Source of the DNA: Candidatus Bathyarchaeota archaeon
GTDB lineage: Archaea; Thermoproteota; Bathyarchaeia; Bathyarchaeales; Bathycorpusculaceae
Length of the DNA: 64,000 bases
Reading direction: 5' to 3'
NCBI GenBank assembly: GCA_963782525.1
Contig: CAWAKC010000003.1
Coordinates: forward strand, 32,001-96,000
Notes under the pieces: model-generated
Databases searched by the model: none
Seen by the model: the letters and a program-made list of their open reading frames with translations, nothing else
Told to the model about the DNA's origin: nothing
Position numbers and translations under genes: made by a program
Shown: in pieces, positions 2,453-23,952 of the stretch
How positions within the stretch are numbered: position 1 is the first letter of the stretch
How the letters are laid out: every line of letters starts with the position of its first letter

Positions 2453-4975
2453 TTATTTGCGTTTTTTTATTAGGACAACGACCAAAAATAGTACCGCTAA
2501 CATAATCAAAATCATGACTGCTTCCAGATTTTCAGGAATTGCTGAAGGGTTAGTATATGGTAAACTTGTGGGGGTTGGAGAAGAGGGTGGTGAAGATGGA
2601 GCTGAAAATGGGGAAATGGTCGTTGCAGGTGAGAGAGTTGGGTTTGTGGGTTCGGGTGATGGAGACGGCGTGGGGGTTTGTGTGGGAGTTGGAGAAGAGA
2701 TTGATGTTGGCGTTTGGGTTGCTGTAGGTTGTAGCGCTTCAAGAGTCAACGTGTAATTGAATGTTGATGTTAAACCTGCATTGTTCATGAATTGGACAAA
2801 CACTGTTTTTTGGCCATCTCCGCCTTGTAGAGTCCACGTTTTCGATGATGAATATGGCTCCCAATTTGACCAGGATGAGTTATCGTTTGAGAACCGCATT
2901 TGTGCAATTCCTGTGGTGGCATCGGTTGCTGATAAAGTCAGCGTAATTATTGGAGTTTCAGTGACTGAAGGTGTTGTTATGTTTCCTGTTGGGGGAGTCT
3001 TGTCTATCTGAATTCCTGTTATGGTCACGTGTGGAAGTTCATTGAGACCTGACCCGTAAATGTTCCATGTACACCAGTATTCGAGCGTGTTATTGCTGCC
3101 CTCTGTTGTTATCGTTGGTTCCCCGTTAGCTGTAACATTGAAAATTGGTCCCCCATTTATACTGTAAAAGGTTTCATTCACAGCAAAGTCAGGAGTAAGG
3201 TTTATGGTAATGTCGGATGCGTGCCATCCGTTCACGTAATCGTTGGCAACCGTTGGCAAGCGGGTCAAATTAACGCAGAAATTACTGTTTCCATCGTTTA
3301 TTGTAATTGTGTGTTGACCTGCAGTTGTAGTAGGCACAATGAAGGTTGTGTTGAAAAACCCGTTGTTGTCGGTGGGTATTATCCCCAAGTTAGTTGTGTT
3401 GTCCCATAACAGTGAAACGCTGCCAGGATCGAACCATTCACCAGAAAAAAGTAGAGCATCGCCGTTTTGGACAAATACGCTGGTTGCCAAATTAGTGCTG
3501 TTTCCGAATAGTCCTTGCGCAGTTACGTTTCCTACCAGCGATAGGCCGCGTCTCCATTCCGCAAATGGAACAACGGTATTGTAAGTGCGACCATTGCTGT
3601 TATCTTGAACTCTGAAAACAATGTTGTCGAAGGCTGCCTGGTGATCGCCTGCAGTGTTGTTTTGGGCTAAATCCGGTGCGTTCATGCTGTAAGTAAAGTT
3701 TTCGGATGTAAGATTGTAGTTGTTGATTATAGGGGTCCAGCCGTTGGTTACTGGGTTTAGGTACGAAATGTTTACTGAGCCCCCAGAAGTGAAGCCGACT
3801 CCGTTGAGAATTATTGCCCCGTTAGGTGGACCGGAAGAGGGAAACACATCAAGAGAGGTCCCAAACCTATACGTAAGAGGGCTACCAAGCCCTGTTACCA
3901 AATCGTAGCCTTGGTTTGCAGAGTTAACTTTGTTGGATCCTTGGGTTATATCTCGGAAGTAAGTTTGATAGGATGAGTTTGCTTTACTATAAAGGTTAAT
4001 GTTTGTGGCGGATTGTCCGAGCGCTTGAATGGCTGCCCACTGAGGTGCCCCAGCGCTTGTGCCGCCAACAATCCACCATGTGCCGTTATAAACTGAGACA
4101 CCTGTTGAAGGGTTTGCGTTATAAGAGACATCGGGAACTACCCGATTTGGATAGTTTAATCCAAAGTTTGTTTGATAATTAGGCCTGGCAATGTAGTGAC
4201 TCACTCCTCCACTACTGCCAACCCAAGCAGTTTCAGAAGATACTGAGCCGTTTGGGTAAAAATATAGCGATGTTCCTCCTACACTAACAACGTTCGCTGA
4301 AGAAGCCGGCCACATTACACTTGAGCCATCATCACCTGATGAAGCGAAAAAGGTGATGCCGGGTTTGTTGAAATGACTTTCATAGAAGGTTTGGAATGAT
4401 GATTCGTTTCCTCCCCAACTCATCGAAACTGCAACTACGCCTGGCTGACTTGCCGCGTAATCAACAGCTGATAGAAGCGCAAAATTGGACGCGGAAGTAG
4501 CTTCAACTAGAAGTATCATTGCGTTGGGAGCTATGGCATGAGCCCATTCTACATCTAAACAAGTTTCCAATGACCAACCATTATCGACTTGTAAATTTGG
4601 AGCCATCTTATGGACAAAAAAGTTGCTTGTCGAGTTGTCTGGAAGCCCATATTGACTTGAAAAAGTGTTGTAGTAATCTAGTATGTTTGGCGTGTCAAAT
4701 GCGTCAACTATGGCGATTGTAGTGTTGGCGCCTCCTGATGAGGGCAAGTTATAAGCTGATCTCATCTGTTCAGGCGAATATCCATGCGGACTAGATGAAC
4801 CTGCAAATGGAGAAATATACATGGGGTGAGCCACCCAATCGTTCTGATCTTTTTGTGTAGCCAAAAAGGCTCCAGATGGAACAAAGTAAGCAATCATAAA
4901 CATTGAACATGTAACGAATACTAGAATTCGAGCTACTTGTATTCGATTCACTTTAGCTGGTTTCCCTTTTTTCAT
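2453..4975 (-). CDS. Secreted, membrane-anchored S53 (sedolisin/kumamolisin-like) protease
   Basis: Signal peptide; motifs ETCLDVE, SSGDDG, GGTSAGAP and GYDLVTGLGSP; beta-rich domains; P/T/S linker; IPE + TM + KKRK tail. Confidence 0.85.
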   Translation of the reverse strand: MKKGKPAKVNRIQVARILVFVTCSMFMIAYFVPSGAFLATQKDQNDWVAHPMYISPFAGSSSPHGYSPEQMRSAYNLPSSGGANTTIAIVDAFDTPNILDYYNTFSSQYGLPDNSTSNFFVHKMAPNLQVDNGWSLETCLDVEWAHAIAPNAMILLVEATSASNFALLSAVDYAASQPGVVAVSMSWGGNESSFQTFYESHFNKPGITFFASSGDDGSSVMWPASSANVVSVGGTSLYFYPNGSVSSETAWVGSSGGVSHYIARPNYQTNFGLNYPNRVVPDVSYNANPSTGVSVYNGTWWIVGGTSAGAPQWAAIQALGQSATNINLYSKANSSYQTYFRDITQGSNKVNSANQGYDLVTGLGSPLTYRFGTSLDVFPSSGPPNGAIILNGVGFTSGGSVNISYLNPVTNGWTPIINNYNLTSENFTYSMNAPDLAQNNTAGDHQAAFDNIVFRVQDNSNGRTYNTVVPFAEWRRGLSLVGNVTAQGLFGNSTNLATSVFVQNGDALLFSGEWFDPGSVSLLWDNTTNLGIIPTDNNGFFNTTFIVPTTTAGQHTITINDGNSNFCVNLTRLPTVANDYVNGWHASDITINLTPDFAVNETFYSINGGPIFNVTANGEPTITTEGSNNTLEYWCTWNIYGSGLNELPHVTITGIQIDKTPPTGNITTPSVTETPIITLTLSATDATTGIAQMRFSNDNSSWSNWEPYSSSKTWTLQGGDGQKTVFVQFMNNAGLTSTFNYTLTLEALQPTATQTPTSISSPTPTQTPTPSPSPEPTNPTLSPATTISPFSAPSSPPSSPTPTSLPYTNPSAIPENLEAVMILIMLAVLFLVVVLIKKRK

Positions 4976-6581: not shown

Positions 6582-7022
6582 TTAACTTAGAGCTCTAGCT
6601 CTTGATTCTATAAATTCTGCGACTTTCTTCTCACCAAAAGTCTTTTCTTGTTTTTGCAATGATAGTTGTTCTCGAATGGTATCTAAGAGTTTTTCGATGT
6701 CTACGGGTTTGATGAGATAAGCATCTGCTTTCTGGTTTAGAGCTAAAATGGCGTTTTGCTGTGAAGGGAAACCAGTTACCATTATCTTCCGGATCTTAGG
6801 AACTGTATCACGCATTTTGGACAGCAGTTCTATACCTTCCATATCTGGAAGCTTGATGTCTAGTAACGCAACGTTGTAGGTGGAATCTTGTGTTTTTCTA
6901 ATAGCCTCACGTCCACTTGCCGCCAAATCGACCTCAAAGCCTTCATCGAGAAGTATGGCAAGAACAGTTTTTCGGATGTTCTCATCGTCGTCAACAACTA
7001 AAATTCTAACTGGATTATCCAA
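6582..7022 (-). CDS. Response regulator receiver protein
   Basis: ILVVDDD, LLDIKLPDMEG, YLIKP. Confidence 0.92.
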   Translation of the reverse strand: MDNPVRILVVDDDENIRKTVLAILLDEGFEVDLAASGREAIRKTQDSTYNVALLDIKLPDMEGIELLSKMRDTVPKIRKIMVTGFPSQQNAILALNQKADAYLIKPVDIEKLLDTIREQLSLQKQEKTFGEKKVAEFIESRARALS

Positions 7023-8952
7023 TCTTATTCACCTCCCGTACAAAATCTTGATTAATTGGCAATGTAACCTTGAAAGTTGTTCCTTCACCTAACTTACTTG
7101 TAACCTTGATTTTTCCGCAATGTGCTTCAACCAACCGTTTGCAAATCGCCAATCCAAATCCCATACCTTGCGCTTTTGTTGTAACTAATGGTGTGAAGAG
7201 TTTTGCTTTGGTTTCTTCAGAAATACCTACACCTGAGTCGATAAAAGAAAATTCCACGAAGGACTCAGTTTGTAGGCTTTTTATTTCCAAGGTTCCTTTT
7301 TCTGGAATTGCATCAATTCCATTTTTGATAAGATTCATAAAAACTCTTTTGATTGAACCTACATCAGCTCTGAATGAAGGTGTGCTTTGTGTATTATCGA
7401 CAATTATTATACGATTTGGGACTTCAAGCGTAGACAAGGCGTCCAACAAGGCTGCTTTAGGGGTGGTCTCCGAAATTTCTAACTTTATGTTCTTTGAATA
7501 ATCTAGGAGATCGCCGATGATCTTGTTTGCATGTTCAATTGATGACTCGATTATGCTAAACATTTCATTTTTAGATTCGCTGGGGCAATCGGCTTCTTTC
7601 TTTTTCAAATAATAAACAGCGTTTTTTATTCCAGAAAGTGGGTTCCGAAGATCATGTCCTACCATTCCAGCCATTTCGCCTATGGCGGCAAGTCTTTCAG
7701 TCTTGACAAGTTGGTTTTGGGCTTCTTTAAGTTCGCCTGTTCTCATAGCAACCGTTTCTTCTAAGCTTTTGGAATAATCTTGAAGCTTCTGTTGAATTTG
7801 TTTTTTCTCGGTGACATCGCGGACAATACTTACCCCAAAAAATGTCCCATTCATTTGAAGTTGCGCATAAGAGATTTCTACAGGGAATGCTGTACCATCT
7901 TTTTTGATGGCGGTTCTTTCAATAATTCTAGTAGATTCAGTCTTGGGTTGATTCTCGATGAACTCTTTCATCATAGGCATTACCGCAGACACATTCTCTT
8001 GAGGTAGTAGGCAGGAAATGGGTTTGCCAATTATTTGGTTGTGAGTGTATCCGAATAGTCTTTGGGCAGCCGGGTTCCAAAAGGATACGTTAAGTTTATT
8101 ATCTATTACAATTATGGCATCCATTGCAGCCTCCATCGTTGCTCGGAATCTTTCTTCACTCTCACTCAAAGTCTGTTCCATTTTCTTACGTTCTGTTATG
8201 GGAACCGCAAGTTCTAAGGCGGCAATAATTCGACCGGTCTTATCTTTTATTGGAGTTGCTGTCAACTCTATCCAAATCAGGTCATTTTCGTTTCTTCTTT
8301 GACAGTATTCGTGGGAATCAGTTTCAACCCCATCTTCAAAAACTTTCCGAACGCCACAATCGCTGCAAAGCGTGTTAGAATGGTTAAAAACGGAAAAGCA
8401 ATACTCGTTTTCCAAGCGGTATTTTGAATTGAGAGTTTTATTGGCCCACAAAACATGGTAATCTCGGCTAATAAGTATGAGACCTGCGTCCAAGTTTTCA
8501 GTCACAGCCTCAAGCATATCTCTTTCCTGTCGGAGTGCGTCCTCGATTTGCTTGCTTTCGGTGATGTCTCTGAAAATACCTTGGACAAGTCTTTTACCAT
8601 TTATCTCGAACACGCTGGATTTAATTGAAACATCTCGAAGATTTCCTTCCTTGGTTATGATTTGGGTTTGCCGAACGCTACTGCCTATGTTTTGGCTGAG
8701 CCTTTTGAAGGCTTTGTTTACTCCTGCTTCGTTTTCTTTTTCGGGATACAGAATTCCATTGTGTTTGCCAATTATTTCTTGACGTGGTCTATTTACCAGT
8801 TGTTGTGCTTTTTTGTTGCAATCGATTATTTTTCCGGTTTTAGCTTCACTTACAAAAATAGCCTCAACTGCTTCTTCGAATAGTGTTTTGTATTTTTCTC
8901 CCGGTTCAATAAGTGCATCAGGTATAGACTTTCTTTTGTTCTGTATCAGCAA
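7015..8952 (-). CDS. Three-PAS sensor histidine kinase
   Basis: Three PAS repeats (one Cys-rich), GHDLRNPL, DSGVG, GMGFGL. Confidence 0.9.
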   Translation of the reverse strand: MLIQNKRKSIPDALIEPGEKYKTLFEEAVEAIFVSEAKTGKIIDCNKKAQQLVNRPRQEIIGKHNGILYPEKENEAGVNKAFKRLSQNIGSSVRQTQIITKEGNLRDVSIKSSVFEINGKRLVQGIFRDITESKQIEDALRQERDMLEAVTENLDAGLILISRDYHVLWANKTLNSKYRLENEYCFSVFNHSNTLCSDCGVRKVFEDGVETDSHEYCQRRNENDLIWIELTATPIKDKTGRIIAALELAVPITERKKMEQTLSESEERFRATMEAAMDAIIVIDNKLNVSFWNPAAQRLFGYTHNQIIGKPISCLLPQENVSAVMPMMKEFIENQPKTESTRIIERTAIKKDGTAFPVEISYAQLQMNGTFFGVSIVRDVTEKKQIQQKLQDYSKSLEETVAMRTGELKEAQNQLVKTERLAAIGEMAGMVGHDLRNPLSGIKNAVYYLKKKEADCPSESKNEMFSIIESSIEHANKIIGDLLDYSKNIKLEISETTPKAALLDALSTLEVPNRIIIVDNTQSTPSFRADVGSIKRVFMNLIKNGIDAIPEKGTLEIKSLQTESFVEFSFIDSGVGISEETKAKLFTPLVTTKAQGMGFGLAICKRLVEAHCGKIKVTSKLGEGTTFKVTLPINQDFVREVNKIG

Positions 8953-9328
8953 ATAAGACCCCCATTTTGCAGATTTCTCCAGCTTTTTGAATACTTTGCC
9001 TTTTCAACCTAACATAGGACTCGAATGTTAATTCAGGAACTATCCAATCAGGTTCATTCCACTCATGTATTGTTTTAGTTTTTGTTTGAAGTTTTTTCAT
9101 AAAACTTATTTCGAGAAGCTTGGCCCCCTCGCCAAGAAGTTTTCCGAGCGCATCTGAAAAGCCAGAAAGATTATCAGGAATTTTTTTTCTACTAATTCCA
9201 AAGTCCTTCCATAGATGAAAATAGATTTCATCCTTTGGAGTTTCACCTAAAAAAGAAAGAACTTCATCAATCGTTTCAAGTACAATGGCATCTAAATCTT
9301 GACTTGTTTCAGCTTTTTTTTGTTTCAA
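8918..9328 (-). CDS. Stand-alone NitrOD5/DUF3227-like archaeal signalling domain protein
   Basis: Pattern LETIDEVLSFLGE..IYFHL..IP...FSDALGKLLGEGAKLLE. First gene of the kinase/receiver operon. Confidence 0.65.
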   Translation of the reverse strand: MKQKKAETSQDLDAIVLETIDEVLSFLGETPKDEIYFHLWKDFGISRKKIPDNLSGFSDALGKLLGEGAKLLEISFMKKLQTKTKTIHEWNEPDWIVPELTFESYVRLKRQSIQKAGEICKMGVLFADTEQKKVYT

Positions 9329-10100: not shown

Positions 10101-10424
10101 ATGCTTCAAATGAAATCAACATCGCTGGAGAGAGAATTCAATTTCCGGAAAGATGAACCTAGAAAGAGCCACTCCAAATCTAAGCTTGAACAATATTTTG
10201 ATATTCTTGATGTTTTGGCTGACAGTGGTCCGCTTAAACTCGTGGTGATTATGCAACAAATTGAATTCAACTGTGCGATGGTGATAGAAGATTTGAGTTT
10301 TTTGGTTAAGCAGAATTTGGTTGATGAAATGAGCAACAATCGACAATCAATTTATTCTATAACTGCGCAAGGTGAAAGGGTTGTAAGGTTTTTTAAAAAA
10401 CCCTCTTTACATCCACGATTTTAA
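10101..10424 (+). CDS. ArnR1-like winged-helix transcriptional regulator
   Basis: SKLEQYFDIL...GPLKL...YSITAQG. Clear paralog of 60133..60426. Confidence 0.75.
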   Translation: MLQMKSTSLEREFNFRKDEPRKSHSKSKLEQYFDILDVLADSGPLKLVVIMQQIEFNCAMVIEDLSFLVKQNLVDEMSNNRQSIYSITAQGERVVRFFKKPSLHPRF

Positions 10425-10472
10425 ATTAACTGTCTTTAGATTCTTCAATTGTTGGCTTGCGTCTAAATTGCG

Positions 10473-10973
10473 TCAGTACCTAGTTTTTATTATCTGCGTT
10501 ATTTTCTCTTCAATTTTCGTTTGGTCCTCAAAGGGTGAATAATTCATTTTTTCCCAAGCAAAACCCACGGATACATGGATGGCTTCTGCGTTTAATTCTT
10601 CAAGGCAAGCTCTTATGTCTTGGATTATTTCGCCTTCTTTGCCTCTAGCGCAAAAAATTACAAGTATCAGGTTGTGTTCTCCATATGTTCGCCAAAGAAA
10701 TCTGACATGACTGTTACTCGCTAATATTTTGATGGCTTTGTCCATTATTGTTTGTGGGATTGTGACTCCAATTGTTATTGGTGTGATATCCATTTGTTCC
10801 AAGTTTACAACGCAATTAAGTACGTTTTTGATAATCCCTCTGTTTTCAAGAGCAGATATTCTTCGGTAAACAGTATTTCGGGTGACGTTACAGGTATTCG
10901 CTAATTCTTCATAGGAACTTGTTCCAGCGCTTAGTTGTTGCAGTATTCTTTTGTCTAACTCGTCAAGAGCCAT
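10473..10973 (-). CDS. Lrp/AsnC family transcriptional regulator
   Basis: LDELDKRILQQL...SYEELA...TVYRRISALENRGII followed by a RAM-like domain. Confidence 0.88.
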   Translation of the reverse strand: MALDELDKRILQQLSAGTSSYEELANTCNVTRNTVYRRISALENRGIIKNVLNCVVNLEQMDITPITIGVTIPQTIMDKAIKILASNSHVRFLWRTYGEHNLILVIFCARGKEGEIIQDIRACLEELNAEAIHVSVGFAWEKMNYSPFEDQTKIEEKITQIIKTRY

Positions 10974-11132: not shown

Positions 11133-14100
11133 ATGAAAGGGCGACGGCTATTGAGTGATAATGACGAGAACATCAGAACATTAATTAATCTTGGGCTCAC
11201 AGGGGCACAGGCGAAAATTTTCCTTTCTCTACTCAGAATTGGACAAGCGTCAACAAAGGAAATTGCACAAGTTTCCAAAGTTGCTCGCCCAGACACCTAC
11301 AGAGAACTTACAGAATTGCAAGACATGGGAATTGTTAAAAAAATTGTATCAATCCCAATCAAGTTTACTTCTTTGTCCATTGAAGATGCCATTGAAATTT
11401 TGATGGCGCGGAGAAATCAAGAAACCTTAGACTTGAACAAAAAAACAACTGAGTTAATTGAAAGATTCAAAAAATTAAATTGTGAACCACAAGTAAATGA
11501 CGACAAACTCATTTTAATTCCAGAAGAAGCATTAGACCTTGAATTGCGAAAACTGCTTGAAAAAGCGGAAGACAGCGTTTGTATTATGGTTTCTAGCCAA
11601 AAAATGTATGGTTGGGCTTGTGAAAGCTTCGAACTAATTGAGGAAGCTTTGAAAAGAAAAGTTTCGTTTCGGGTTGTAACTGAAAAGCTTCCAAAACCAG
11701 CATCTTCAAAAGAAATAAATGCGCTAAACAAAAACCCAAATTTTGAAATCAGACATATTTCTGCCCCTCTTGGTGCTTGGTTTACGATATACGACGGCAA
11801 AATAGTTGTACTTGCAATCGGTCCAGATTCCGCAGTTAGGTCAAATAATAAAATCTTAATAGAATTAGCAAAAGACTATTTTGACTCCACATGGTCCTCA
11901 GCGATAGAACCAATAGACCAAATCTTCAAAAAAGATAGCCAACAATTTGATAAACTTTTTGCAAACATGATTAACGGTTTCGCCTACTGTCAAATGATAT
12001 TTGACAAAGAAGGAAAGCCTTCAGATTTTATTTATCTCCAAGTGAACGATGCTTTCTCAAAAATAACTGGATTTGAAAAAAATGAAATAATTGGTAAAAA
12101 GGTCTCTCAAGCAATACCTGGAATAAAAGAAGCTAACCCCGAACTTTTCGAAATTTACGGTCGAGTATCTCTCAGTAGGAAGAGCGAAGAGGTTGAAACT
12201 TTTTTCAAACCTTTGAACATTTGGTTATTTATTTCTGTTTACAGTCCTAAAAGAGGCTATTTTGCCGCCTTATTTGAAGATATTTCGGAATATAAGAAAA
12301 CCGAACAGAAGTTAAAGGAAAGCGAGTTAAAATACCGCAACATTTTCAACAATTCGGCAGCCGGAATGTTTAGGACTGTCTTGGACGGTTCTAAAATCCT
12401 TGACTGCAACGCCCATTTCCTTGCGATTTTTGGTAGGTCCTACGATGAAGTCGTAGGTAGACCATCAATTATTCATTGGTTTGATCCGAGTGATAGGCAA
12501 GAAATGGTTCGCTTACTTCAAGCCAAGGGACAAATTGAAGATTTTGAATGTCGGATGTTAACCAAACAAGGTGAAATTAAAACATGTCTGACATCCTTGA
12601 AGCTCGACTCTGAACAGAAAATATTAGAAGGCTCAATAATCGACATTTCCGAACGCAAACGAGTAGAAAATGCTCTGAAGGAAAATCAATATTTTGTTGA
12701 AAAAATTCTTAACACCACACCCACCCTTATCTACATTTATGACCTCATAGAGCACCGCAATGTTTACGCTAATCAAGAAATAGTTGAATTTTTGGGTTAT
12801 GAACCTGAGCAAATCGAAATGATGGGGCCAAACTTGTTTTCCACTATATTGCATCCTGACGATTTCGATCTTGTGACTAATCATCATTCAAAAATCCGCA
12901 ACGCCTCAGGAAATGACCAGTTTGAGGTTGAATATCGCATGAAACATGCCGATGAAAGTTGGCATTGGTTGCATAGCATAGACGTTCCTTTTAGTTTCAA
13001 TCAGGAAGGCACAGTTAAGCAGATTTTAGGATCGGCTGAAGACATAACAGAGCGCAAGAATAATGAATTGGAATTGAAGCGGTTAAATGAGGTTCTTGAG
13101 CGGGTGGGGCAAAGTGTTGATGCGGGGTTGGCTGTTATTGGTAAGGATTATCATGTCATTTGGGCCAATCAACGTCTAAAAGATTTGGGTGTTGCTCCAA
13201 ACAAAAAATGTTACCAAATCTTCAACAAATCCCATTCAGTTTGTATTAATTGTGGTGTAAAAAAAATTTTTGAACAAAACCGACCATTTGATGTTCATGA
13301 ATTCAAGACAATTAACTCAAAGGGTGAAACAACATGGATAGAATTAAGAGTAACTCCCTTGAAAGACAAAAACGGTGCTACCATGGCTGCTCTTGAGCTT
13401 GCAGTTCCAATCACCGAACGCAAAAAAACTGAAGAGGACTTGCAGAAAAGCCTAAAAAGAGAACGTTTTCTGGCAAATCTCATAAGAAATGCTTCGATTG
13501 CGATCGCCGTTGCATATCCTGGTGGTAGATTGATGATGATTAATGAGGCGTTTCAGCGACTCACCGGCTACAAAGAGAACGAATTGAAAAATCTTACTTG
13601 GAATGTAGATCTAACTCCAATAGAATGGCGCGAATACGAGACGAAAAAATTGGGGGAAATTATTCAATCTAAGAAATCTGGCGTTTATGAGAAAGAGTAC
13701 ATTCGAAAGGATGGGTCTATAGTTTCAGTCGAAATTGTTGTCCACCCATTCTTTGATGAAAATGAAAACATCTCTTATTATTTTGGGTTTATAACTGATA
13801 TTACAGAACGCAAAAAAGCTGAACATGAACTTTTGGAGCAGAAAGAAAAAGCCGAGCGTTATCTCAATGTTATTAGGCATGTTGTTCTGGCATTGGACCT
13901 TAAAGGAAATATTACTCTGCTCAATAAGAGAGGGTGTGAAATTCTCGGTTACGAAGAAGGAGAGCTAGATGGAAAAAATTGGGTTGAGAATTGTCTTCCA
14001 ATGGATGTAAGAGAAGAGTTAAGAATGGTTCATGAAAATTTTGTTCACATAGCGAATGGGCTTCCCGAATACTACGAGAATGCTATTTTAACAAAAAAGG

Positions 14101-14573
14101 GCGAGAGAAAAATAATTAGATGGTATAATACGGTTGTGACCGACGAGAGTGGACGAATTATTGGCTCATTGAGTTCAGGAGAGGATATTACTGAAAGGAA
14201 GAAAGCTAATGAGGCGCTGGAAACGAGCGAGAAGAAGTTCCGCTCTCTTTTTGAGAATTCTCTTGACGGATTGATAATTGCTAAGCGAGATGGGAGAATA
14301 CTTTGGGCGAATACTGCAATTTGTGAAATGCTGGGCATGACTAAAAAAGAAGTCTTGGCGGCTGGTCGCCAAGGAATAGTAGTTAATGACAAAAGAAATA
14401 TTGCTGCACTCAAAGAACATGATGCCAAAGACAAAGTTGTAGCTCAATTAGCTTTTAAACGCAACGACAAGTCTGTTTTTGAAGCTGAAATTTCAAGCAG
14501 AAACTTCGAAGATGTCGATGGGTCAACAAGCATTTTTCTTACAATCCGCGATCTCAAAAACAGATTTCGCTAA
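11133..14573 (+). CDS. TrmB-family regulator fused to seven PAS domains
   Basis: N-terminal TrmB HTH (LGLTGAQAKIFLSLL..EIAQVSKVARPDTYR) and effector domain, then seven PAS/PAC repeats ending in DIxE(R)K-type motifs. No kinase domain. Confidence 0.8.
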   Translation: MKGRRLLSDNDENIRTLINLGLTGAQAKIFLSLLRIGQASTKEIAQVSKVARPDTYRELTELQDMGIVKKIVSIPIKFTSLSIEDAIEILMARRNQETLDLNKKTTELIERFKKLNCEPQVNDDKLILIPEEALDLELRKLLEKAEDSVCIMVSSQKMYGWACESFELIEEALKRKVSFRVVTEKLPKPASSKEINALNKNPNFEIRHISAPLGAWFTIYDGKIVVLAIGPDSAVRSNNKILIELAKDYFDSTWSSAIEPIDQIFKKDSQQFDKLFANMINGFAYCQMIFDKEGKPSDFIYLQVNDAFSKITGFEKNEIIGKKVSQAIPGIKEANPELFEIYGRVSLSRKSEEVETFFKPLNIWLFISVYSPKRGYFAALFEDISEYKKTEQKLKESELKYRNIFNNSAAGMFRTVLDGSKILDCNAHFLAIFGRSYDEVVGRPSIIHWFDPSDRQEMVRLLQAKGQIEDFECRMLTKQGEIKTCLTSLKLDSEQKILEGSIIDISERKRVENALKENQYFVEKILNTTPTLIYIYDLIEHRNVYANQEIVEFLGYEPEQIEMMGPNLFSTILHPDDFDLVTNHHSKIRNASGNDQFEVEYRMKHADESWHWLHSIDVPFSFNQEGTVKQILGSAEDITERKNNELELKRLNEVLERVGQSVDAGLAVIGKDYHVIWANQRLKDLGVAPNKKCYQIFNKSHSVCINCGVKKIFEQNRPFDVHEFKTINSKGETTWIELRVTPLKDKNGATMAALELAVPITERKKTEEDLQKSLKRERFLANLIRNASIAIAVAYPGGRLMMINEAFQRLTGYKENELKNLTWNVDLTPIEWREYETKKLGEIIQSKKSGVYEKEYIRKDGSIVSVEIVVHPFFDENENISYYFGFITDITERKKAEHELLEQKEKAERYLNVIRHVVLALDLKGNITLLNKRGCEILGYEEGELDGKNWVENCLPMDVREELRMVHENFVHIANGLPEYYENAILTKKGERKIIRWYNTVVTDESGRIIGSLSSGEDITERKKANEALETSEKKFRSLFENSLDGLIIAKRDGRILWANTAICEMLGMTKKEVLAAGRQGIVVNDKRNIAALKEHDAKDKVVAQLAFKRNDKSVFEAEISSRNFEDVDGSTSIFLTIRDLKNRFR

Positions 14574-15170
14574 ACACAAAAAACCCACGATAAAATTGTC
14601 AAAGAACCGGATTTTGCCATAACTATTATGAACGTAATCTATGTTATGCTCCGCAGGTAAGCTGATTCATTAACTCTAACTCTGAAATAATGATGACATT
14701 TTTTACACGAATAGTCTTGAATGATAAAACTATAGTTTTTTCATTTCCCTTAAAGGCTTTTCAACTTCTCTACCGCAACTAGGACATAGCACCATTTAGC
14801 ATCAATCCTTGTCTTTGAAATCAGAATATGAATATTATGAAGGCCAAATGTAGCAAAAATTTGCATACATTGTTACAGGGATTCAAAACAGAAAAAATCT
14901 GTACATGTTTCTAAATAATTTTAACCATGCGAATTATTTTTTTATGGACAGATGGATAATAAAAAATACGAATAAACAATGAGGATAACAAGAGAAAAAC
15001 TCGTTCACTTTAGGGTTAAAAACATTATCAACTAAAAATATAACAGAGTTTATCTTCAGGCCTACTGCAAAACATCTGTGGATTTTTTCCCGCAAAAGAA
15101 CGAGGCTTATTATATCTTATGTATGATTAATCAATAAATTATATATTCGGGCAATCCTCATCTCTCCAAC

Positions 15171-15671
15171 ATGAACATATTAAACACTATAAAAAAATCG
15201 ACGCCGCTAAAGATAATTATTCCAATCCTAATAATCTCAATAGTCTCCATCGCTTCTTTCGCAGCAAGTGTAGCAGTTAATTCCTCAACTTCTCAGACTG
15301 TCCAAGGTGTCATGTACACAGTAACTGGAGGTTTTACAGCAGCCAGCAACGGATTTGTGGTCACTCAAAGTGCAGCTACCGCAACAACACTACCAGCCAC
15401 ATGGACAAGTAACGGCACCGTGACGACTTCAACTTTTGCAGGAAATTGGCAATACTCTTTAACAGTTACATTAAACGCAGCAGCATCAACAAGCACAACC
15501 TACACAGTAAGCGTACAATGGAACACTGGAACTGGATACGCAGCACTAGGCGCTCCACTTACCTTTACAACACCAGCCACAATAACTGCTGGGCAAACGA
15601 TGACATTCGTCTTAAACACCGGCGTAACCACCTTCAACGCACCAGCAGGTATCCTAATTACAATCGCTTAG
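15171..15671 (+). CDS. Secreted Thr/Ala-rich beta protein, candidate major fibre subunit
   Basis: Sec signal ending ASFA; all-beta-looking mature part almost devoid of charged residues; no C-terminal anchor; upstream of a signal peptidase. Confidence 0.6.
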   Translation: MNILNTIKKSTPLKIIIPILIISIVSIASFAASVAVNSSTSQTVQGVMYTVTGGFTAASNGFVVTQSAATATTLPATWTSNGTVTTSTFAGNWQYSLTVTLNAAASTSTTYTVSVQWNTGTGYAALGAPLTFTTPATITAGQTMTFVLNTGVTTFNAPAGILITIA

Positions 15672-15713
15672 GCGGCACCAACTTTGTTCAACTGGAAACG
15701 AGTCTACAAAAAA

Positions 15714-16952
15714 ATGGCTCGGATTCCTTTTTTTAATAACTTAAAAGCCCCCGGGCTCCTCATTTTCGGGTTGATCGCTCTAATTATATTTTCAATCGGA
15801 ATGATTTCGCTTTCCGCAGCTCCAGTCAACATAACTTCTTCAAGCAGTCAAGCGAAACTCGGAATCTTTATGCTGAGCTATTTTGAAAACGCAAATGCAC
15901 CCTCAAGCGGAACCTCAGTGACAGTAAATACTCAAACATCCATACCTACATCATCAGGATCTTATTTAATTCCACGCGGAACATCCGTTTACATCTGGAC
16001 AACCCAATTTGCATCTTCAATCACAGTTCCTTCAGGAAAAATGATCCTTGATTTATGGGCGGGGTCGACGACGCCTGCTCCCAGTTTGGATGGGCAAGCA
16101 TCAGCAAGCACCAATGGAGCCTCTGGATCAGTTTCCCTCACCACCACTCAAACAAGCGATCTAATTTACGTAGTCGTTTCAACATCCTCCACTCCAAGCG
16201 TGTCAATTTCTGGAGCAGGATTATCATGGAACTTAAGAGGGTCCATAGTTAACGGGAGAACTGGTGCGGTTTGGACTTTTTATTCAATTTCTCCTAGCAC
16301 TCTATCTTCAGCAACAATTACAGCAACTTTAGATTCAAAACAAAAATTCGTGATTTTAGCATTCGCTGTAAGTGGAGTAAACACTTCCGCACCATTTGAT
16401 CCAAATCTTGGAACTGTGGCAATGTCTACAGGTAGCTATTCACAGCCTTCAGTCTCGTTTACAACTAACTTTGCAAATGACTTTCTGATAGGCGCATTAT
16501 ATCTAAATAACAACCCTACGGTTACCCCCAGCCTGGGTTTTTCGACCATTGCGGTGTCTAATTTCGCTAATCAGGTAACAGGCGTCGCAGAAAGCGAAAA
16601 CTCGGAATCCGCAGGAGTTCAAATTGCAGCTTTTTCACTCAGTTCAAGCAATTCGTGGGCAATAATCGGCGATGCTCTGGTTCCATCAACCGTAGGATCA
16701 ACACTTTCAGTGTCGGCTTATACAACCGCATCTTCTGGGGCAAATTCAAACACTCTATTCAGTAGTTTCAACACAAATACGCTTTCCCCTAATGGTGGGC
16801 AAGTGGCAACAGTGTTTCCAGTAACCTCCGGCGTCATACCTGCTCAGGGATATGTAAAGATTATATTAACTGCTCCATCCACTTCTGACATTGTTATTCA
16901 ATGGGGAGCCGGAAAACCAACTAATGTACAAATTGCTTTAACGTATGGATAG
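15714..16952 (+). CDS. Secreted Ser/Thr-rich beta protein, candidate minor/tip fibre subunit
   Basis: Signal peptide ending SLSA; mature N-terminus APVNITSSSSQ resembles that of the upstream protein. ATG 15714 preferred over TTG 15684. Confidence 0.6.
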   Translation: MARIPFFNNLKAPGLLIFGLIALIIFSIGMISLSAAPVNITSSSSQAKLGIFMLSYFENANAPSSGTSVTVNTQTSIPTSSGSYLIPRGTSVYIWTTQFASSITVPSGKMILDLWAGSTTPAPSLDGQASASTNGASGSVSLTTTQTSDLIYVVVSTSSTPSVSISGAGLSWNLRGSIVNGRTGAVWTFYSISPSTLSSATITATLDSKQKFVILAFAVSGVNTSAPFDPNLGTVAMSTGSYSQPSVSFTTNFANDFLIGALYLNNNPTVTPSLGFSTIAVSNFANQVTGVAESENSESAGVQIAAFSLSSSNSWAIIGDALVPSTVGSTLSVSAYTTASSGANSNTLFSSFNTNTLSPNGGQVATVFPVTSGVIPAQGYVKIILTAPSTSDIVIQWGAGKPTNVQIALTYG

Positions 16953-18204
16953 AGCTACGATGAAGTTTACTAAGAAAAAACTGGAATTGTTGCTGTTGGT
17001 GGTCGTTGGCTTAATTATAATTTTGCTTCCAGTTTATGCAAGAACGGGGTCTTATCCGTTAGTTATAGTTGATGGAAATAGTATGTATCCTACCCTGCAA
17101 AACGGAGATGTTGTCTACTATCATGCTGCAACTAACAATGCAAACATTCCTAACGGAACCATAATAGTGTTTGTTCAAGGTGAGACCGGAATATCAATAC
17201 TAGATGGGATGGTTCGACCTGTTGTAATACATAGAATCGTTGGTCAGATTACCCAAAGTGACGGACAGGTTTGTTACACGACTAAAGGCGATAATAATAA
17301 TGTTAATGACCCTTTTCTTACGAGATCTGATCACGTTCTCGGGGCTGGTGGTCTAAATATTCCTAAAATTGGTTTATTGGTCCTTTTTTTGAAGTCCCCC
17401 CAAGGGTTGATAGCCACAATCGGAATTATTTGTTTATCTTACCTAAGCATATATGACATTAAGCGAAGAAAGGACAAGAACAAGGACAAGCTATTAGGAG
17501 CGTTAGCTAAAAAAACCCTCAACGGATACTTATCTGAGCAGCAATTCAAGAAATTGGAATTAGCAGTAAAATATTCTGATGAAATTGAAACTTCAAGTCT
17601 TAGGGATCGAAGTGTTTTTGCTTTAGTTGACTGGTTTAAGAATGGCACTAATGAAACAGATTGGAAAATGCGAATGGTGGCTTGCCCTAAATGCTTCCAT
17701 ATTGCAGTTGGACTTGAGGGGCATGAAGATTCAGTAACTATTTGTTCGAACTGCAACGATGTAAAGACCTGGAATACAACGTTGGTTTTGAATGAAAAGA
17801 ACCTTAATCGCTTATTGTTAGAGTCAATTGATGAAGCTTTGTCAGTTATAGGTAACGAAGCTAAAGCTTCATTATTTCATATACTTGAACACCAATTTCT
17901 CCTTAAAAGAGAGGAAATCCCCAAAAGAATAGATGACTTTTCAGTGGCAATGCAAAAGATATTCGGGAATGGATCTGTGAATATAGATTTACTTCTTGCA
18001 AAAACATTTAAGAAGAATCTGTTTTTGATTTGTAGGGTGGACCCTGAAAGTTTTCCTTTTCAAGAATTTGTAAAACAGATTAGGAATAATATAGACAAAA
18101 TGGGCAATGAAAAAGAGATAAGTAAAATGCTACCTGGCAAGGTTGTGGAAGTTCCCTGCGTTTTATGCAAGGAAAAACAAGATGAAAAAATAGTGGAAGA
18201 CTAA
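16945..18204 (+). CDS. Signal peptidase I (Sec11/SipW type) fused to a Zn ribbon and a NitrOD5-like domain
   Basis: GNSMYPTLQNGD, VIHRI, TKGDNN; second TM; CPKC...CSNC; C-terminal LLESIDEALSVIG..LFHILE..IPKRIDDFSVAMQKIFGNG similar to 8918..9328. Confidence 0.8.
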   Translation: MDRATMKFTKKKLELLLLVVVGLIIILLPVYARTGSYPLVIVDGNSMYPTLQNGDVVYYHAATNNANIPNGTIIVFVQGETGISILDGMVRPVVIHRIVGQITQSDGQVCYTTKGDNNNVNDPFLTRSDHVLGAGGLNIPKIGLLVLFLKSPQGLIATIGIICLSYLSIYDIKRRKDKNKDKLLGALAKKTLNGYLSEQQFKKLELAVKYSDEIETSSLRDRSVFALVDWFKNGTNETDWKMRMVACPKCFHIAVGLEGHEDSVTICSNCNDVKTWNTTLVLNEKNLNRLLLESIDEALSVIGNEAKASLFHILEHQFLLKREEIPKRIDDFSVAMQKIFGNGSVNIDLLLAKTFKKNLFLICRVDPESFPFQEFVKQIRNNIDKMGNEKEISKMLPGKVVEVPCVLCKEKQDEKIVED

Positions 18205-18366: not shown

Positions 18367-21108
18367 TTAAGACTTCAGTTCTGAGGTATTCTCAGTATTT
18401 TGGCAACAATTTTCAATTCCTTTTTTGTTTACTTTAGGTATTATTATTTCGAATTTTGCGCCCTCAGAACTGCCTGTTTCCTGAATTTTCCAACCGTAAA
18501 TATCCAGCATTCTTTTAATGAAAAAAAGACCTAACCCTGTGCTGCCCCCCGTGCTATAGCCTTCTTTGAAAAGGAAAGGTTTATCTTTCAAAGAGATGCC
18601 CACACCATTGTCTTCGTAGATTAATGTTATATTTTCGTCATAGTTTTTATTATAACTGATTTTAACTTCTGAGGCTTTTTGCCCGTATTTGCGTGTATTA
18701 TCTAAAAGATTATAGAAGAGTTGTACTAAAAATGAATCTGCCAATAAGCATAATCCATGGCATCTATTGATTATTCTGAAGCTTTGATTGCTGGAAAATA
18801 ATTTAATCGCATCGTCGACCGCTACACCTGCATCGATTGGGCTTAGACTTTCTAGTCCTAGTTGCTCGTACATTTTAGCAAAATTGAAAATTCTATTTAT
18901 ATTTTGGATAGCCCGGTCTATTTGATCTAAAGCCTCAACTATTACTGGCTGCTCTTTATGCTTTTTTCTTAGGATGTAAGAGTAACCTGCTATTCCGCTT
19001 AGTTTGTTGCGAACATCGTGTCTAGTTAATCCGCCGACCACTCTTAGCTTCTCATTAAGCAATTCGGAGTTTTCAATTGTGCAACTTAATGCTTCAAGTG
19101 CTATTGTTAAATCGCGCTGAGTTTGTTTCAATTCAGAAATGTTGGTAACAACACTAACTGCACCAGAATATTTGCCTTTTTCATCGAAAAGCGGGGAATG
19201 ATTTACGATTACTGGAACTGGAACACCTTCTTTATTGATAACTTTCGCTTCAGTATCCCAGCTCACTCCAGACTTTAACCTTTTTATGACAGTTTTTGGG
19301 TTAGCATTTTCTTCGGCGCCCGTTATTTCAATTATGTCCTTACCTGCAACTTCTGTTTCGGTCCAGCCATAGAGATTTTCAGCACCTTTATTCCAGAAAC
19401 GAATTTTTCGATTTTCATCAACCATGATTACGGATTGACCAACACTGTTTAAAAGGTTCACTTGGAACGCTACCCTTCTCTCGTTCTCTTTGCGCTCGAC
19501 AACTCTTCCTAAACGCTCTGCGACAGCATCAATTAAAAATCTTTCTTCCTTCAGAAATGGTCCATCAAAATAGATTATATCTTTCTTTTCAAGATAGTAA
19601 ACTTCAATGCAACCAACATTTTTTTCAAAAGATGAAATATTGGCTTGATATCTCCAAGAACTTTGTTGGAAATTATGAGTCAGATATTGTTGATTTTCAA
19701 ACGTAATCTTGGAGCATGCACTCTCTGGGTACTGCAAAGTTTTGGGAAGTAATTCGTTGGTTCTCTTCATTACATCTTCTAATGAAGTGTTTGGCTTTTC
19801 AATCATTAGTGAAATATCGTAAAGACAACTAAGCGCTTTATTGGCCTGCTGATACCTCTGCAAAAGCTGCTCGAACTCCAATTCCGCTTTTTTATGCTCG
19901 GTTATTGGTACTGCAAGTTCGAGTACAGATGTGATCTTGCCTTCTGAATCTTTTAGAGGGGTGGCTCTAATTTCAACCCAGTTCTTTTTACCCTCTGAAT
20001 TAATGGTCATGTATTCATGGGTGTCTAAAGGAATATTTTCTTCAAAAACTTTTTTGACACCACAACCCGGACAAACTTCGTTTAATTTAGCAATCGTATT
20101 AAAACATTTTTGATTAGGAATAGCTCCTGCATTTGCCAGGACTTTATTGCACCAAATAATATCGTAGTTTTTGTCAATTATTGCTAGTCCAGCGTCGATG
20201 TTTTCTCCGACACTTTCAAGAAGCTGGAACTTTTCGGTGAGCTTTAATGCCGCGTTCTTCTCTTTCGTTATGTCTTGGCATGTTCCCAAAATTTGTTTAC
20301 CCGTCCCTCGAGCAGTTCTACTAAATAATATGTCATAGCTCCGGAACCAATGCCATTCTCCATCGGCATGTCTTATCCGATATTCCACTTCAAAAACCTC
20401 GTTCTCTAAGGCGTTCGTAAACCGGGCATAATGAGCGGTTATTATTTTAACATCTTCTGGGTGCAAAAGACTTATGAACGATTCAGAACCCATTTCTGAA
20501 ATCTGCTCTGGAGAATAACCGAGAAATTTAGCTGCTTCCTTGTTCGAATAAATATATTTATTTTCAAATAAATCATAGATGTAGACTATATTTGGTGTCG
20601 AATCGATTATTTTATGAGTAAAAAGTCGTGCTTCAGCTAATTTCTTTTTTGACTCAGTTTTCTCAATAGAATTTTCTATAACGTGTTCAAGTTCGCCATA
20701 AACCGTTTCTGGGTTGCCTTGTTTGTTTACGTAGCCGTCTGCGCCTAGATTCAATGCTTTGACAGCAAGTTCTTCTCGACCTTTTCCAGTAAACAAAACA
20801 AAAGCAATATCGTTTTTTTGCTCTCTAAGGTTGAGAAGTAAATCCAGTCCATTTTTAATAGGCATTTCATAATCAGAAATTACGGCGACATAATTACCTG
20901 TGGATAGTTTATTTAATGCTTCATCTACGTTTGATGCACAATCAATTAGGTATTCGCCATCTGATTCTAAAATTGTCTTTGTAAGATTTAGAAAACAAAG
21001 GTCATCGTCAACATATAATATGTTCTTTTTACATATTGGTTGTTCTTTTTCTGCCCCAATTTTAAATGTAATAAGGTTGTTTTCATTGGAATTACAATTC
21101 ATCTGCAA
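18367..21108 (-). CDS. Hybrid histidine kinase (REC-PAS-PAS-GAF-like-PAS-HisKA-HATPase)
   Basis: ILYVDDD, SDYEMP, RHDVRNKL, DNGVG, GSTGLGL. Confidence 0.88.
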   Translation of the reverse strand: MQMNCNSNENNLITFKIGAEKEQPICKKNILYVDDDLCFLNLTKTILESDGEYLIDCASNVDEALNKLSTGNYVAVISDYEMPIKNGLDLLLNLREQKNDIAFVLFTGKGREELAVKALNLGADGYVNKQGNPETVYGELEHVIENSIEKTESKKKLAEARLFTHKIIDSTPNIVYIYDLFENKYIYSNKEAAKFLGYSPEQISEMGSESFISLLHPEDVKIITAHYARFTNALENEVFEVEYRIRHADGEWHWFRSYDILFSRTARGTGKQILGTCQDITKEKNAALKLTEKFQLLESVGENIDAGLAIIDKNYDIIWCNKVLANAGAIPNQKCFNTIAKLNEVCPGCGVKKVFEENIPLDTHEYMTINSEGKKNWVEIRATPLKDSEGKITSVLELAVPITEHKKAELEFEQLLQRYQQANKALSCLYDISLMIEKPNTSLEDVMKRTNELLPKTLQYPESACSKITFENQQYLTHNFQQSSWRYQANISSFEKNVGCIEVYYLEKKDIIYFDGPFLKEERFLIDAVAERLGRVVERKENERRVAFQVNLLNSVGQSVIMVDENRKIRFWNKGAENLYGWTETEVAGKDIIEITGAEENANPKTVIKRLKSGVSWDTEAKVINKEGVPVPVIVNHSPLFDEKGKYSGAVSVVTNISELKQTQRDLTIALEALSCTIENSELLNEKLRVVGGLTRHDVRNKLSGIAGYSYILRKKHKEQPVIVEALDQIDRAIQNINRIFNFAKMYEQLGLESLSPIDAGVAVDDAIKLFSSNQSFRIINRCHGLCLLADSFLVQLFYNLLDNTRKYGQKASEVKISYNKNYDENITLIYEDNGVGISLKDKPFLFKEGYSTGGSTGLGLFFIKRMLDIYGWKIQETGSSEGAKFEIIIPKVNKKGIENCCQNTENTSELKS

Positions 21109-22929: not shown

Positions 22930-23952
22930 TAGGGGTGTGCAGAATTTAAGCTGCTTCCCAATTATGTTCTAGTATGGAAGCCTGTGAAGTTGTCAGGCTT
23001 TTCGTCAACAAAGCAATCGTTTCTGTAGAACCCAAAAGACGCGGAAATCCAGGCTACGGACGCCTAAGAGCACTAAGAGTTCTCGTTTATGCCAGACTGA
23101 AAGGATTAGAGAACGACACACGTGTAATTGAACATCTAAAGAAGCATACGGACGTTGCTAGAACACTTGGCTTATTCAAAGTACCCAATAGAACCACTGT
23201 TGGAAGATGGTGGAGACGCTATCTTGACGTTCTTGAAGAAACTTTTAAGAAGATATCGGCTATGCTTCAACTAGTGACACCGACCACTATTCTAATTGTT
23301 GACTCAACGCCGTTAGTGGATCTCTACGATATGGAAGCGGGCTGGGGTCACACGAGCCGTGGAAAATTCAGAGGTTTCAAGCTTCATGCAGCGGTAAATC
23401 AGCTGGGGTTGCCGTTGAGAGCAGTTGTTACGCCTGGTAATCGTTATGACTCGCCTTTTCTTCCCGGTCTCATTGAGGATTTGGAAGCAGAATACGTTTT
23501 GGCCGATGCGGGTTATGACTCGAAAACAAACAAAAGAGCAGCCAAGGGCATTGAAGCTGAGCCTGTTATTGCTCCTAATCCTAGAAGGGGAAAACGCAAA
23601 AGAATCAAACATGCTAGACTCTTGGAGACTAAGCGTTATGTGGTTGAGCAGTTTAATGGGCATCTTAAAGCTAACGTTTTGAGGAATTGCTGGGTGAGGC
23701 CTAAGGGTTTGGTGAAGAAGGCGGCTATGGTGATGGCTGGCTTGATTAGTTATGATGCTGAAGCAATACGATCGCTTATTGTTGGCGAGCAAAGTCTAAA
23801 AACGGTAAGCAAGTACTGGGCTTGACCCAACAACAAATGATCATGGAGCCCTCAAAGACACCAAATCAATGGTATTTACGGGTACGATCCCAGACTTGCT
23901 CAAAGATAACTTACCTATCGGAACTATAAAAAATGAATTGCGCACACGTCTA
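22930..23952 (+). mobile_element. Insertion sequence with DDE transposase (IS5/IS4-like)
   Basis: Imperfect terminal inverted repeats TAGGGGTGTGCAGAATT / AATTGCGCACACGTCTA. 7-bp target duplication ATTTATT at 22923-22929 and 23953-23959. Confidence 0.9.
22974..23825 (+). CDS. DDE transposase
   Basis: IVDSTPL, GFKLHAAV, LADAGYDS, KRYVVEQFNGHLK. Confidence 0.9.
   Translation: MEACEVVRLFVNKAIVSVEPKRRGNPGYGRLRALRVLVYARLKGLENDTRVIEHLKKHTDVARTLGLFKVPNRTTVGRWWRRYLDVLEETFKKISAMLQLVTPTTILIVDSTPLVDLYDMEAGWGHTSRGKFRGFKLHAAVNQLGLPLRAVVTPGNRYDSPFLPGLIEDLEAEYVLADAGYDSKTNKRAAKGIEAEPVIAPNPRRGKRKRIKHARLLETKRYVVEQFNGHLKANVLRNCWVRPKGLVKKAAMVMAGLISYDAEAIRSLIVGEQSLKTVSKYWA

Follow-up and report, generated by a model that had tools for sequence, protein, structure and literature searches.

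A candidate archaeal surface-fibre cassette whose signal peptidase bears a predicted zinc ribbon and a NitrOD5-like tail

We analysed a 64,000-nucleotide (nt) stretch from the genome of a soil archaeon, Candidatus Bathyarchaeota archaeon (GCA_963782525.1; contig CAWAKC010000003.1, positions 32,001-96,000, forward strand), hereafter ‘the window’, and focused on three open reading frames (ORFs) at 15171-18204 that all run in the same direction (+). The first two encode secreted proteins and the third a signal peptidase I with a long C-terminal extension. We propose that together they make up an accessory cassette that builds a structure on the cell surface, most probably a thin fibre, and in which the tail of the peptidase docks the enzyme to a sensory pathway, a reading to which we give roughly even odds (about 0.5). 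A preliminary description, made from the DNA letters alone, had seen here two secreted proteins without a C-terminal anchor and with similar mature N-termini, followed by a dedicated Ser-His peptidase with a CxxC..CxxC ribbon, the whole set between PAS sensors; each part of this outline held up in the analyses reported below.

Two secreted proteins share a conserved mature N-terminus

At the start of each of the first two proteins, ~17 hydrophobic residues follow a basic n-region and lead to a small-residue site; a C-terminal hydrophobic anchor is absent from both. The gene 1 protein divides into a signal peptide (residues 1-31), a conserved N-terminal extension (32-53) and a beta-sandwich core (54-166), its mature N-terminus reading ASVAVNSSTSQ. 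We modelled this putative subunit as an AlphaFold2 monomer from a 33-sequence alignment. The best model showed a nine-strand beta-sandwich core with a predicted local distance difference test (pLDDT) score of ~80-90, with residues 26-53 below 50; mean column identity was 0.68 for residues 32-53 versus 0.74 for the core.

In the monomer model of the larger gene 2 protein, the N- and C-terminal segments build a jelly-roll into which a beta domain of ~210 amino acids (aa) is inserted, the N-terminal extension again scoring a pLDDT below 50. After the small-residue site, the mature N-terminus reads AAPVNITSSSSQ (given as APVNITSSSSQ in the preliminary description). Across lineages, the insert of the second protein varies from 189 to 536 aa, with a DUF2341 match in one relative (locus L003). 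Foldseek matches for the protein 2 model had TM scores of ~0.1 and were rejected as meaningless.

Plain BLASTP between the window's two secreted proteins gave no match. The orthologues of both families have in common a motif, S-[FY]-A / [AT]-S-V-x-V-[TS]...G...Y, which runs from the last residues of the signal peptide over the first ~20 of the mature protein (the slash marks the boundary) and was present in all ten second proteins inspected. A profile of six short-form second proteins aligned with the 33-sequence subunit profile at 96.8% probability (hhalign; E 2.6e-10, 104 columns), mostly over the signal peptide and mature N-terminus. Judged by these comparisons, the N-terminal likeness of the two proteins exceeds chance. 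Both are predicted to carry a conserved N-terminal extension outside the monomer fold, downstream of a probably cleavable signal peptide, and the second protein may be a minor subunit carrying the same type of strand as the first.

Neither secreted protein belongs to the TasA or DUF1102 family by profile match. PF12389 (Peptidase_M73; TasA/camelysin) gave no match at E ≤ 1 in either protein and none at E ≤ 10 across the whole genome, whereas the control genomes of B. subtilis and M. acetivorans did match; DUF1102 (PF06510) had no Pfam match in the secreted proteins and surfaced only as a weak ESM Atlas lead (0.76). NCBIfam models, any for SipW-cognate signal peptides among them, likewise had no match to the two proteins at E ≤ 1, and PDB profile searches with both were empty or insignificant. 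Queried with the subunit model, Foldseek returned nothing at E ≤ 1e-3, and VIA-align (a wide search and a second look) returned generic sandwiches, with TasA, AbpA, thread and tafi chains not among the best 50 matches listed. The subunit families are unannotated.

The peptidase carries a predicted cytoplasmic extension with a zinc ribbon

The gene 3 protein scored 88.1 bits against TIGR02228 (sigpep_I_arch; cut-off 51.85), and SEC11C and SEC11A matched its residues 11-144 (E 2e-13 to 5e-11). The catalytic residues S46 and H96 are invariant among 26 aligned peptidases, as are D116 and D122. Against the SipW equivalog NF046067, the protein reached 55.1 bits, below the cut-off of 190; that model does not class it as a SipW orthologue, though it probably has a similar role. 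Hydrophobic segments, taken as two membrane segments that enclose the catalytic domain, lie at ~13-31 and ~141-172, and because a Lys/Arg cluster follows the second, the remaining ~245 C-terminal residues are predicted by the positive-inside rule to be cytoplasmic.

The membrane-proximal part of this extension, residues 176-289, is conserved at F201, E205, Y210, W230, W240, C247, C250, C267 and C270. In its CxxC...CxxC arrangement, C247 and C267 are invariant and C250 and C270 nearly so across the 26 aligned sequences. The helical/zinc-ribbon module was present in all 121 peptidases compared (the window's and the best 120 database clusters); for this mid-domain, a PDB profile search gave no significant solved relative and the ESM Atlas no usable match.

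The terminal domain is a divergent relative of NitrOD5

The preliminary description had likened the remainder of the extension, the tail, to the stand-alone protein at 8918-9328 and had called it NitrOD5/DUF3227-like. The first likeness was confirmed by BLASTP (E 2e-13, 29% identity over 119 residues of the 136-aa protein). The second stands as a kinship between profiles and falls at the level of the Pfam model itself: none of 12 tails and paralogues matched NitrOD5 (PF11537, formerly DUF3227; cut-off 27 bits) at E ≤ 10, and the model had no match across the window's genome at that threshold. PF11537 matched at E ≤ 1e-3 in 14 of 121 sampled genomes of the class, three of them above the cut-off, and the window's tail and its paralogues matched those ORFs by BLASTP (E 1e-7 to 2e-21). 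By hhalign, 16 tails aligned with seven PF11537-matching ORFs from other families at 99.0% probability (E 8.4e-18, 95 columns). A search of 1.84 billion representatives with the tail profile retrieved 1937 relatives at E ≤ 1e-3, mostly stand-alone proteins of 100-160 aa; 18 of the 142 tail-family representatives scanned matched PF11537, and no other family recurred beyond four. These sequence likenesses place the terminal domain in a NitrOD5-like superfamily, as a divergent member; Pfam's model covers this superfamily only in part.

NitrOD5 has been described as an archaeal ‘Death domain-like’ domain of ~100 aa, helical, mostly stand-alone and found in several copies per genome; it is sometimes fused to REC and has been tied to a KaiC-hub proposal (PMC5847659). 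The tail resembles it in that its family consists mostly of small stand-alone proteins and aligns with PF11537-matching proteins as above, and differs in that the window's tail and paralogues stay below the Pfam threshold. Table 3 of that source gives NitrOD5 and REC-NitrOD5 only, with no fusion to a peptidase or giant surface protein, while its Tables S4 and S5 may add architectures. Among the matches listed in our literature search, no description of an S26 plus zinc ribbon plus NitrOD5-like architecture was found, which agrees with the preliminary description, where the fusion was not known to have been described.

Nor is the fusion a one-off read-through: the architecture survey found the terminal domain (~110 aa) in 24 of 121 peptidases (23 of the 120 database clusters plus the window's), and the tailed form is also present in locus L003. 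We built a maximum likelihood tree of all 121 rows from the shared region (IQ-TREE; LG+C20+F+G4 by posterior mean site frequency, PMSF; midpoint root for drawing only). All 24 tailed peptidases fell within one clade of 50 rows (support 100/99), the other 71 rows being short without exception. The tail label needs five changes on the tree, and well-supported branches force at least three. This distribution fits one gain followed by repeated loss (at least twice); on this phylogenetic showing, the fusion is real, recurrent and old within the sub-clade, but dispensable. Some short forms end where the tail domain begins and keep its first few residues. Three of the short-form peptidases (P0020, P0025 and P0031) are 296 aa long and stop a few residues into the tail position (alignment A2, columns 301-330), which looks like tail loss by truncation. 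With tblastn, no tail remnants were found downstream of short-form peptidases (all E > 0.3).

Relatives of the tail are associated with two-component signalling

The genome encodes three stand-alone tail paralogues, at 8918-9328 in the window, C7:26962-27441 and C4:4687-5040, and all three adjoin a kinase gene. Two of them stand first in triads of identical make-up, an adaptor followed by a PAS-HisKA-HATPase kinase and a receiver, one in the window (9328 to 6582) and one on contig C7; the third lies before a large PAS protein. Elsewhere, members of the tail family are joined in one protein with PAS domains or with a complete PAS-HisKA-HATPase kinase. The claimed tie of the tail family to two-component signalling is thereby borne out in this genome; its weaker showing in other genomes is weighed below. 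The second triad (C7:26962-30230; L012:2963-6231) has the same layout as that of the window and is followed by a Rad51/KaiC-family protein of 243 aa at C7:29499-30230 (Pfam Rad51, 61 bits), by eye without a classical Walker A motif.

A similar tail also occurs outside the peptidases. P0266, a 3751-aa database representative with immunoglobulin-like repeats (DUF4556, Flg_new_2, DUF2341), closes with a membrane segment, then a basic cluster and lastly a NitrOD5-like domain that strongly resembles the peptidase tails. By its sequence, it is a second kind of envelope protein with such a predicted cytoplasmic tail, and the NitrOD5-like tail domain seems to act as an adaptor in the cytoplasm, one that envelope proteins can acquire.

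Gene order is conserved in a patchily distributed cassette

Using the subunit profile, we retrieved nine related loci from public genomes. The order subunit(s), second protein, peptidase was found in all eight loci with downstream DNA; the ninth meets a contig edge directly after the second gene. Another genome of the window's genus (L036) has the identical cassette order. Of 401 sampled genomes of the class, G000 among them, 26 gave a match to the profile, as did only two of 40 other genomes of the genus, a patchy distribution. The closest named records are metagenome-assembled genomes, at 76% and 71% identity under the label Candidatus Bathyarchaeia and at 51-63% under Nitrososphaerales or Thaumarchaeota. 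A sequence-run search listed four soil-metagenome DNA runs from one study, with small word shares, and no RNA run.

An ordinary signal peptidase I without an extension is encoded on contig C1 of the genome, which makes the enzyme of the window an additional paralogue, linked to the cassette. With this one other, plain copy and a conserved cassette holding two secreted proteins, its description as a dedicated peptidase proved sound.

Other conserved neighbours in the relatives are a pyridine-nucleotide oxidoreductase and an ABC ATPase, neither of which is in the window. Five deeper-branching loci (L005, L007, L008, L009 and L011) share a conserved 171-aa ORF on the opposite strand, ~170 bp upstream of the subunit gene; it has no Pfam match and is absent from the window. 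Genome G135, of another family, has five near-identical subunit genes, each on its own contig (L030-L034): two copies are accompanied by a 515-aa second protein, one by a truncated second protein and one by a short-form peptidase, and one stands alone.

The cassette resembles known donor-strand systems

The cassette type is already known. In TasA fibres, the N-terminal strand of a subunit is reported to enter the next protomer (PMC9674648, PMC4551309), and TapA to donate its own N-terminus to TasA (PMC10151520). Like tapA-sipW-tasA of Bacillus subtilis, the cassette joins two secreted proteins, a major subunit and a minor partner, to a dedicated signal peptidase of the endoplasmic reticulum (ER)/archaeal type, and the minor-partner gene overlaps the peptidase gene. 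Unlike it, the cassette has no Peptidase_M73 match, stays at 55 bits against 190 for the SipW equivalog, follows a different gene order and encodes a peptidase with a ~245-aa cytoplasmic extension that SipW does not have. SipW itself is said to have a second, signalling role, reportedly described by Terra et al. in 2012.

In the haloarchaeal tafi system (TafA-G), the peptidase TafD is described as required for TafA processing and fibre formation; clusters of the taf type pair subunits of 150-200 aa with a larger two-domain protein, donor-strand exchange is predicted, and the Sec-type taf-like clusters of Thermococcus and Archaeoglobus encode DUF1102 proteins (PMC11821415). Like these, the window's cassette is archaeal and combines a signal peptidase I of its own with small subunits and a larger partner. 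It departs from tafi in that its proteins have no DUF1102 match and that no TafG-like (DUF5305) partner stood out among its conserved neighbours. The peptidases differ too: TafD, with four membrane helices, has a second extracellular domain, whereas the window's enzyme has two membrane segments, a predicted cytoplasmic zinc ribbon and the NitrOD5-like tail. Bundling pili (AbpA/AbpB) and Sulfolobus threads (Saci_0406/0405) are described as signal peptidase I-cleaved polymers held by N-terminal donor strands, and a neighbouring minor protein has been proposed to nucleate or cap them (PMC9245690, PMC9715654). In contrast to the window, those loci have no dedicated peptidase, as stated for the bundling pili (ABP; PMC9245690), and we detected no sequence or fold match of the window's proteins to either structure (for folds, among the best 50 matches listed).

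Strand-donation surface fibres are now known in several archaea, and our literature search found none for soil Nitrososphaeria/Bathyarchaeia-type lineages among the matches listed. From these lineages, the cassette is a compact candidate: three genes, an uncharged 135-residue subunit and its own processing enzyme. The tailed peptidase is its more unusual part and would offer a direct handle on whether a cell can regulate secretion processing from within. With it, the known partners of NitrOD5/‘Death-domain-like’ adaptors extend beyond receivers to membrane enzymes and to giant surface proteins.

Proposed function and alternatives

Because the pattern of subunit, partner, shared unstructured but conserved N-terminal segment and private peptidase matches these known systems, we consider a donor-strand fibre the most likely cassette product, with protein 2 as nucleator, cap or adhesin. 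Gene 1 would provide an abundant small subunit, an uncharged Thr/Ser-rich beta-sandwich; gene 2 a minor jelly-roll partner with a lineage-variable middle domain, acting as nucleator, tip or adhesin; and gene 3 an ER/archaeal-type signal peptidase I of the cassette's own for both. The peptidase would cleave the two precursors after S-[FY/L]-[A/S], in protein 1 after S-F-A, and so expose an N-terminal strand, which could insert into the next subunit (donor-strand complementation). Protein 2, in the part that TapA plays for TasA, would supply a like strand with which the polymer starts or is capped. The cytoplasmic tail might dock the processing enzyme to a sensory pathway, controlling or reporting processing; we suggest this role because the tail family otherwise occurs beside histidine kinases or fused to PAS-kinases or receivers.

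Several findings weigh against this proposal. Only one of the five subunit monomer models was confident (mean pLDDT 69.8; the other four 46-50), which makes it weak to read the subunit as an incomplete fold. One genome has five subunit copies with a peptidase within ~6 kb of only one of them, and at five loci of a divergent family, subunit-like genes stand in tandem and a nearby peptidase is missing. The tail, for its part, fails the Pfam NitrOD5 cut-off and was lost several times, which marks it as dispensable for the cassette; and by a crude BLAST survey, only two of 16 PF11537-matching loci in other genomes have a REC or PAS neighbour within ~1.5 kb.

The tail is also where the most serious competing explanation applies. 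The cytoplasmic extension may have no sensory role and act instead as a scaffold that supports oligomerisation or membrane localisation or that touches the secretion machinery, its NitrOD5-like domain being a generic adaptor gained by chance. A zinc-ribbon module that is universal in the clade, next to a NitrOD5-like domain kept in so few of its members and lost at least twice, speaks for this explanation, as do the low kinase adjacency in other genomes (2/16 loci) and the same tail type at the end of a membrane-anchored surface protein of 3751 aa, a hint at an adaptor for envelope proteins in general. The three kinase-adjoining paralogues of this genome, two of them in identical triads, point the other way, and so do the PAS-kinase fusions and the published REC-NitrOD5 proteins (PMC5847659). 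On balance, we regard a non-sensory extension as unlikely, though a real contender. Gating of signal-peptide cleavage by the tail is possible, and a scaffold role seems about as likely as that.

A bolder version of the sensory proposal would make the peptidase a signalling node: tail and zinc ribbon would bind kinase-operon adaptors or KaiC/RadA-like hubs, switching cleavage and fibre assembly post-translationally or reporting substrate load to the kinase. We consider this distinctly unlikely. If it were true, the same tail on P0266 would hint at a possibly general archaeal wiring of envelope proteins to two-component or KaiC networks.

As for the cassette product, the two secreted proteins could be surface or extracellular proteins that do not polymerise (a lectin or adhesin with its partner, or an envelope coat), their shared segment being a recognition site for the peptidase and nothing else. 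The conserved segment, however, runs ~20 residues beyond the cleavage site, further than signal peptidase I usually requires for recognition. The subunit moreover has features typical of structural subunits: its 126 database homologues are 51-91% identical and nearly all 160-170 aa long, the protein is nearly uncharged, and its gene is multiplied to two to five copies in some genomes. Recognition by the peptidase would account for a motif common to both families, and these further features make a non-polymerising pair rather unlikely.

Polymerisation could also proceed by an amyloid-like or sheath-type beta assembly driven by an uncharged, Thr/Ser/Asn/Gln-rich composition, with no ordered donor strand. 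The composition itself would suit such an assembly: the predicted mature protein is entirely free of Asp, Glu, Lys, Arg and His, as in six of the 33 aligned members, the window's included (median 4 charged residues of ~135, range 0-10), and the subunit monomer prediction was unstable. Against this stand the confident globular beta-sandwich core of the best model and the way in which a partner with the same N-terminal strand and a dedicated peptidase mirrors donor-strand systems; we consider such an assembly quite improbable. That gene 3 is a general signal peptidase whose position beside secreted proteins is incidental is scarcely credible: it does pass the general archaeal model TIGR02228, but the genome has a second signal peptidase I, synteny is kept in eight of eight loci across 40-93% identity, and the cassette's patchy occurrence in class and genus is unlike that of a housekeeping gene.

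Genomic context of the cassette

Coordinates are collected in Table 1. Gene 2 probably starts at the ATG at 15714, where the database copy of the window's protein begins, giving 412 aa; gene 3 begins 8 nt before the end of gene 2, its start overlapping the gene 2 stop. Upstream of gene 1 lie ~600 bp of non-coding DNA, and the A/T-rich element in front of it is a possible archaeal promoter that would give a leaderless or short-leader transcript. A scan for sigma-70 promoters and terminators stayed at background level, the model being of a bacterial type unsuited to archaea. The PAS sensors noted earlier on either side of the cassette are, by domain annotation, a TrmB helix-turn-helix (HTH)/multi-PAS protein and a REC-PAS-HATPase kinase.

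Table 1 Features of the cassette and its surroundings (positions in the window).
Feature	Position	Strand	Basis
Receiver protein of triad	6582-7022	-	Domain annotation
PAS-HisKA-HATPase kinase of triad	7015-8952	-	Domain annotation
Stand-alone NitrOD5-like paralogue, 136 aa; first gene of triad	8918..9328	-	ORF, BLASTP
TrmB-HTH/multi-PAS protein, flanking the cassette	11133-14573	+	Domain annotation
A/T-rich TATA-box-like element, ~28 nt 5′ of first ATG	15136..15147	+	Read from sequence
Gene 1, secreted protein, putative major subunit	15171..15671	+	ORF, 166 aa
Candidate donor strand, codons for 22 mature N-terminal residues of gene 1	15264..15329	+	Conservation and monomer model
Gene 2, secreted protein, putative minor subunit/nucleator/adhesin	15684..16952	+	ORF, 422 aa
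Gene 3, signal peptidase with extension	16945..18204	+	ORF, 419 aa
Signal peptidase I catalytic domain (archaeal/ER-type), residues 1-175	16945..17469	+	TIGR02228
Predicted cytoplasmic helical region and Cys4 zinc ribbon, residues 176-289	17470..17811	+	Conservation; cysteine codons in 17683-17754
NitrOD5-like (archaeal ‘Death-domain-like’) helical domain, residues 290-419	17812..18204	+	BLASTP, hhalign
REC-PAS-HATPase kinase, flanking the cassette	18367-21108	-	Domain annotation

Two small winged-helix regulators lie at 10101-10973, between the kinase triad and the large TrmB-PAS protein: one of the HTH_45 type (+ strand) and one of the AsnC/Lrp-type HTH_24 (- strand). Further upstream, 2453-4975 (-) encodes a secreted protein of 840 aa that contains numerous N-x-S/T sites and a Pro/Thr-rich linker and is anchored in the membrane by its C-terminus; no Pfam family matched it at E ≤ 1e-3. 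About 5 kb downstream of the cassette, a 283-aa ORF (22974-23825, +) resembles, by eye, a DDE-type insertion-sequence transposase.

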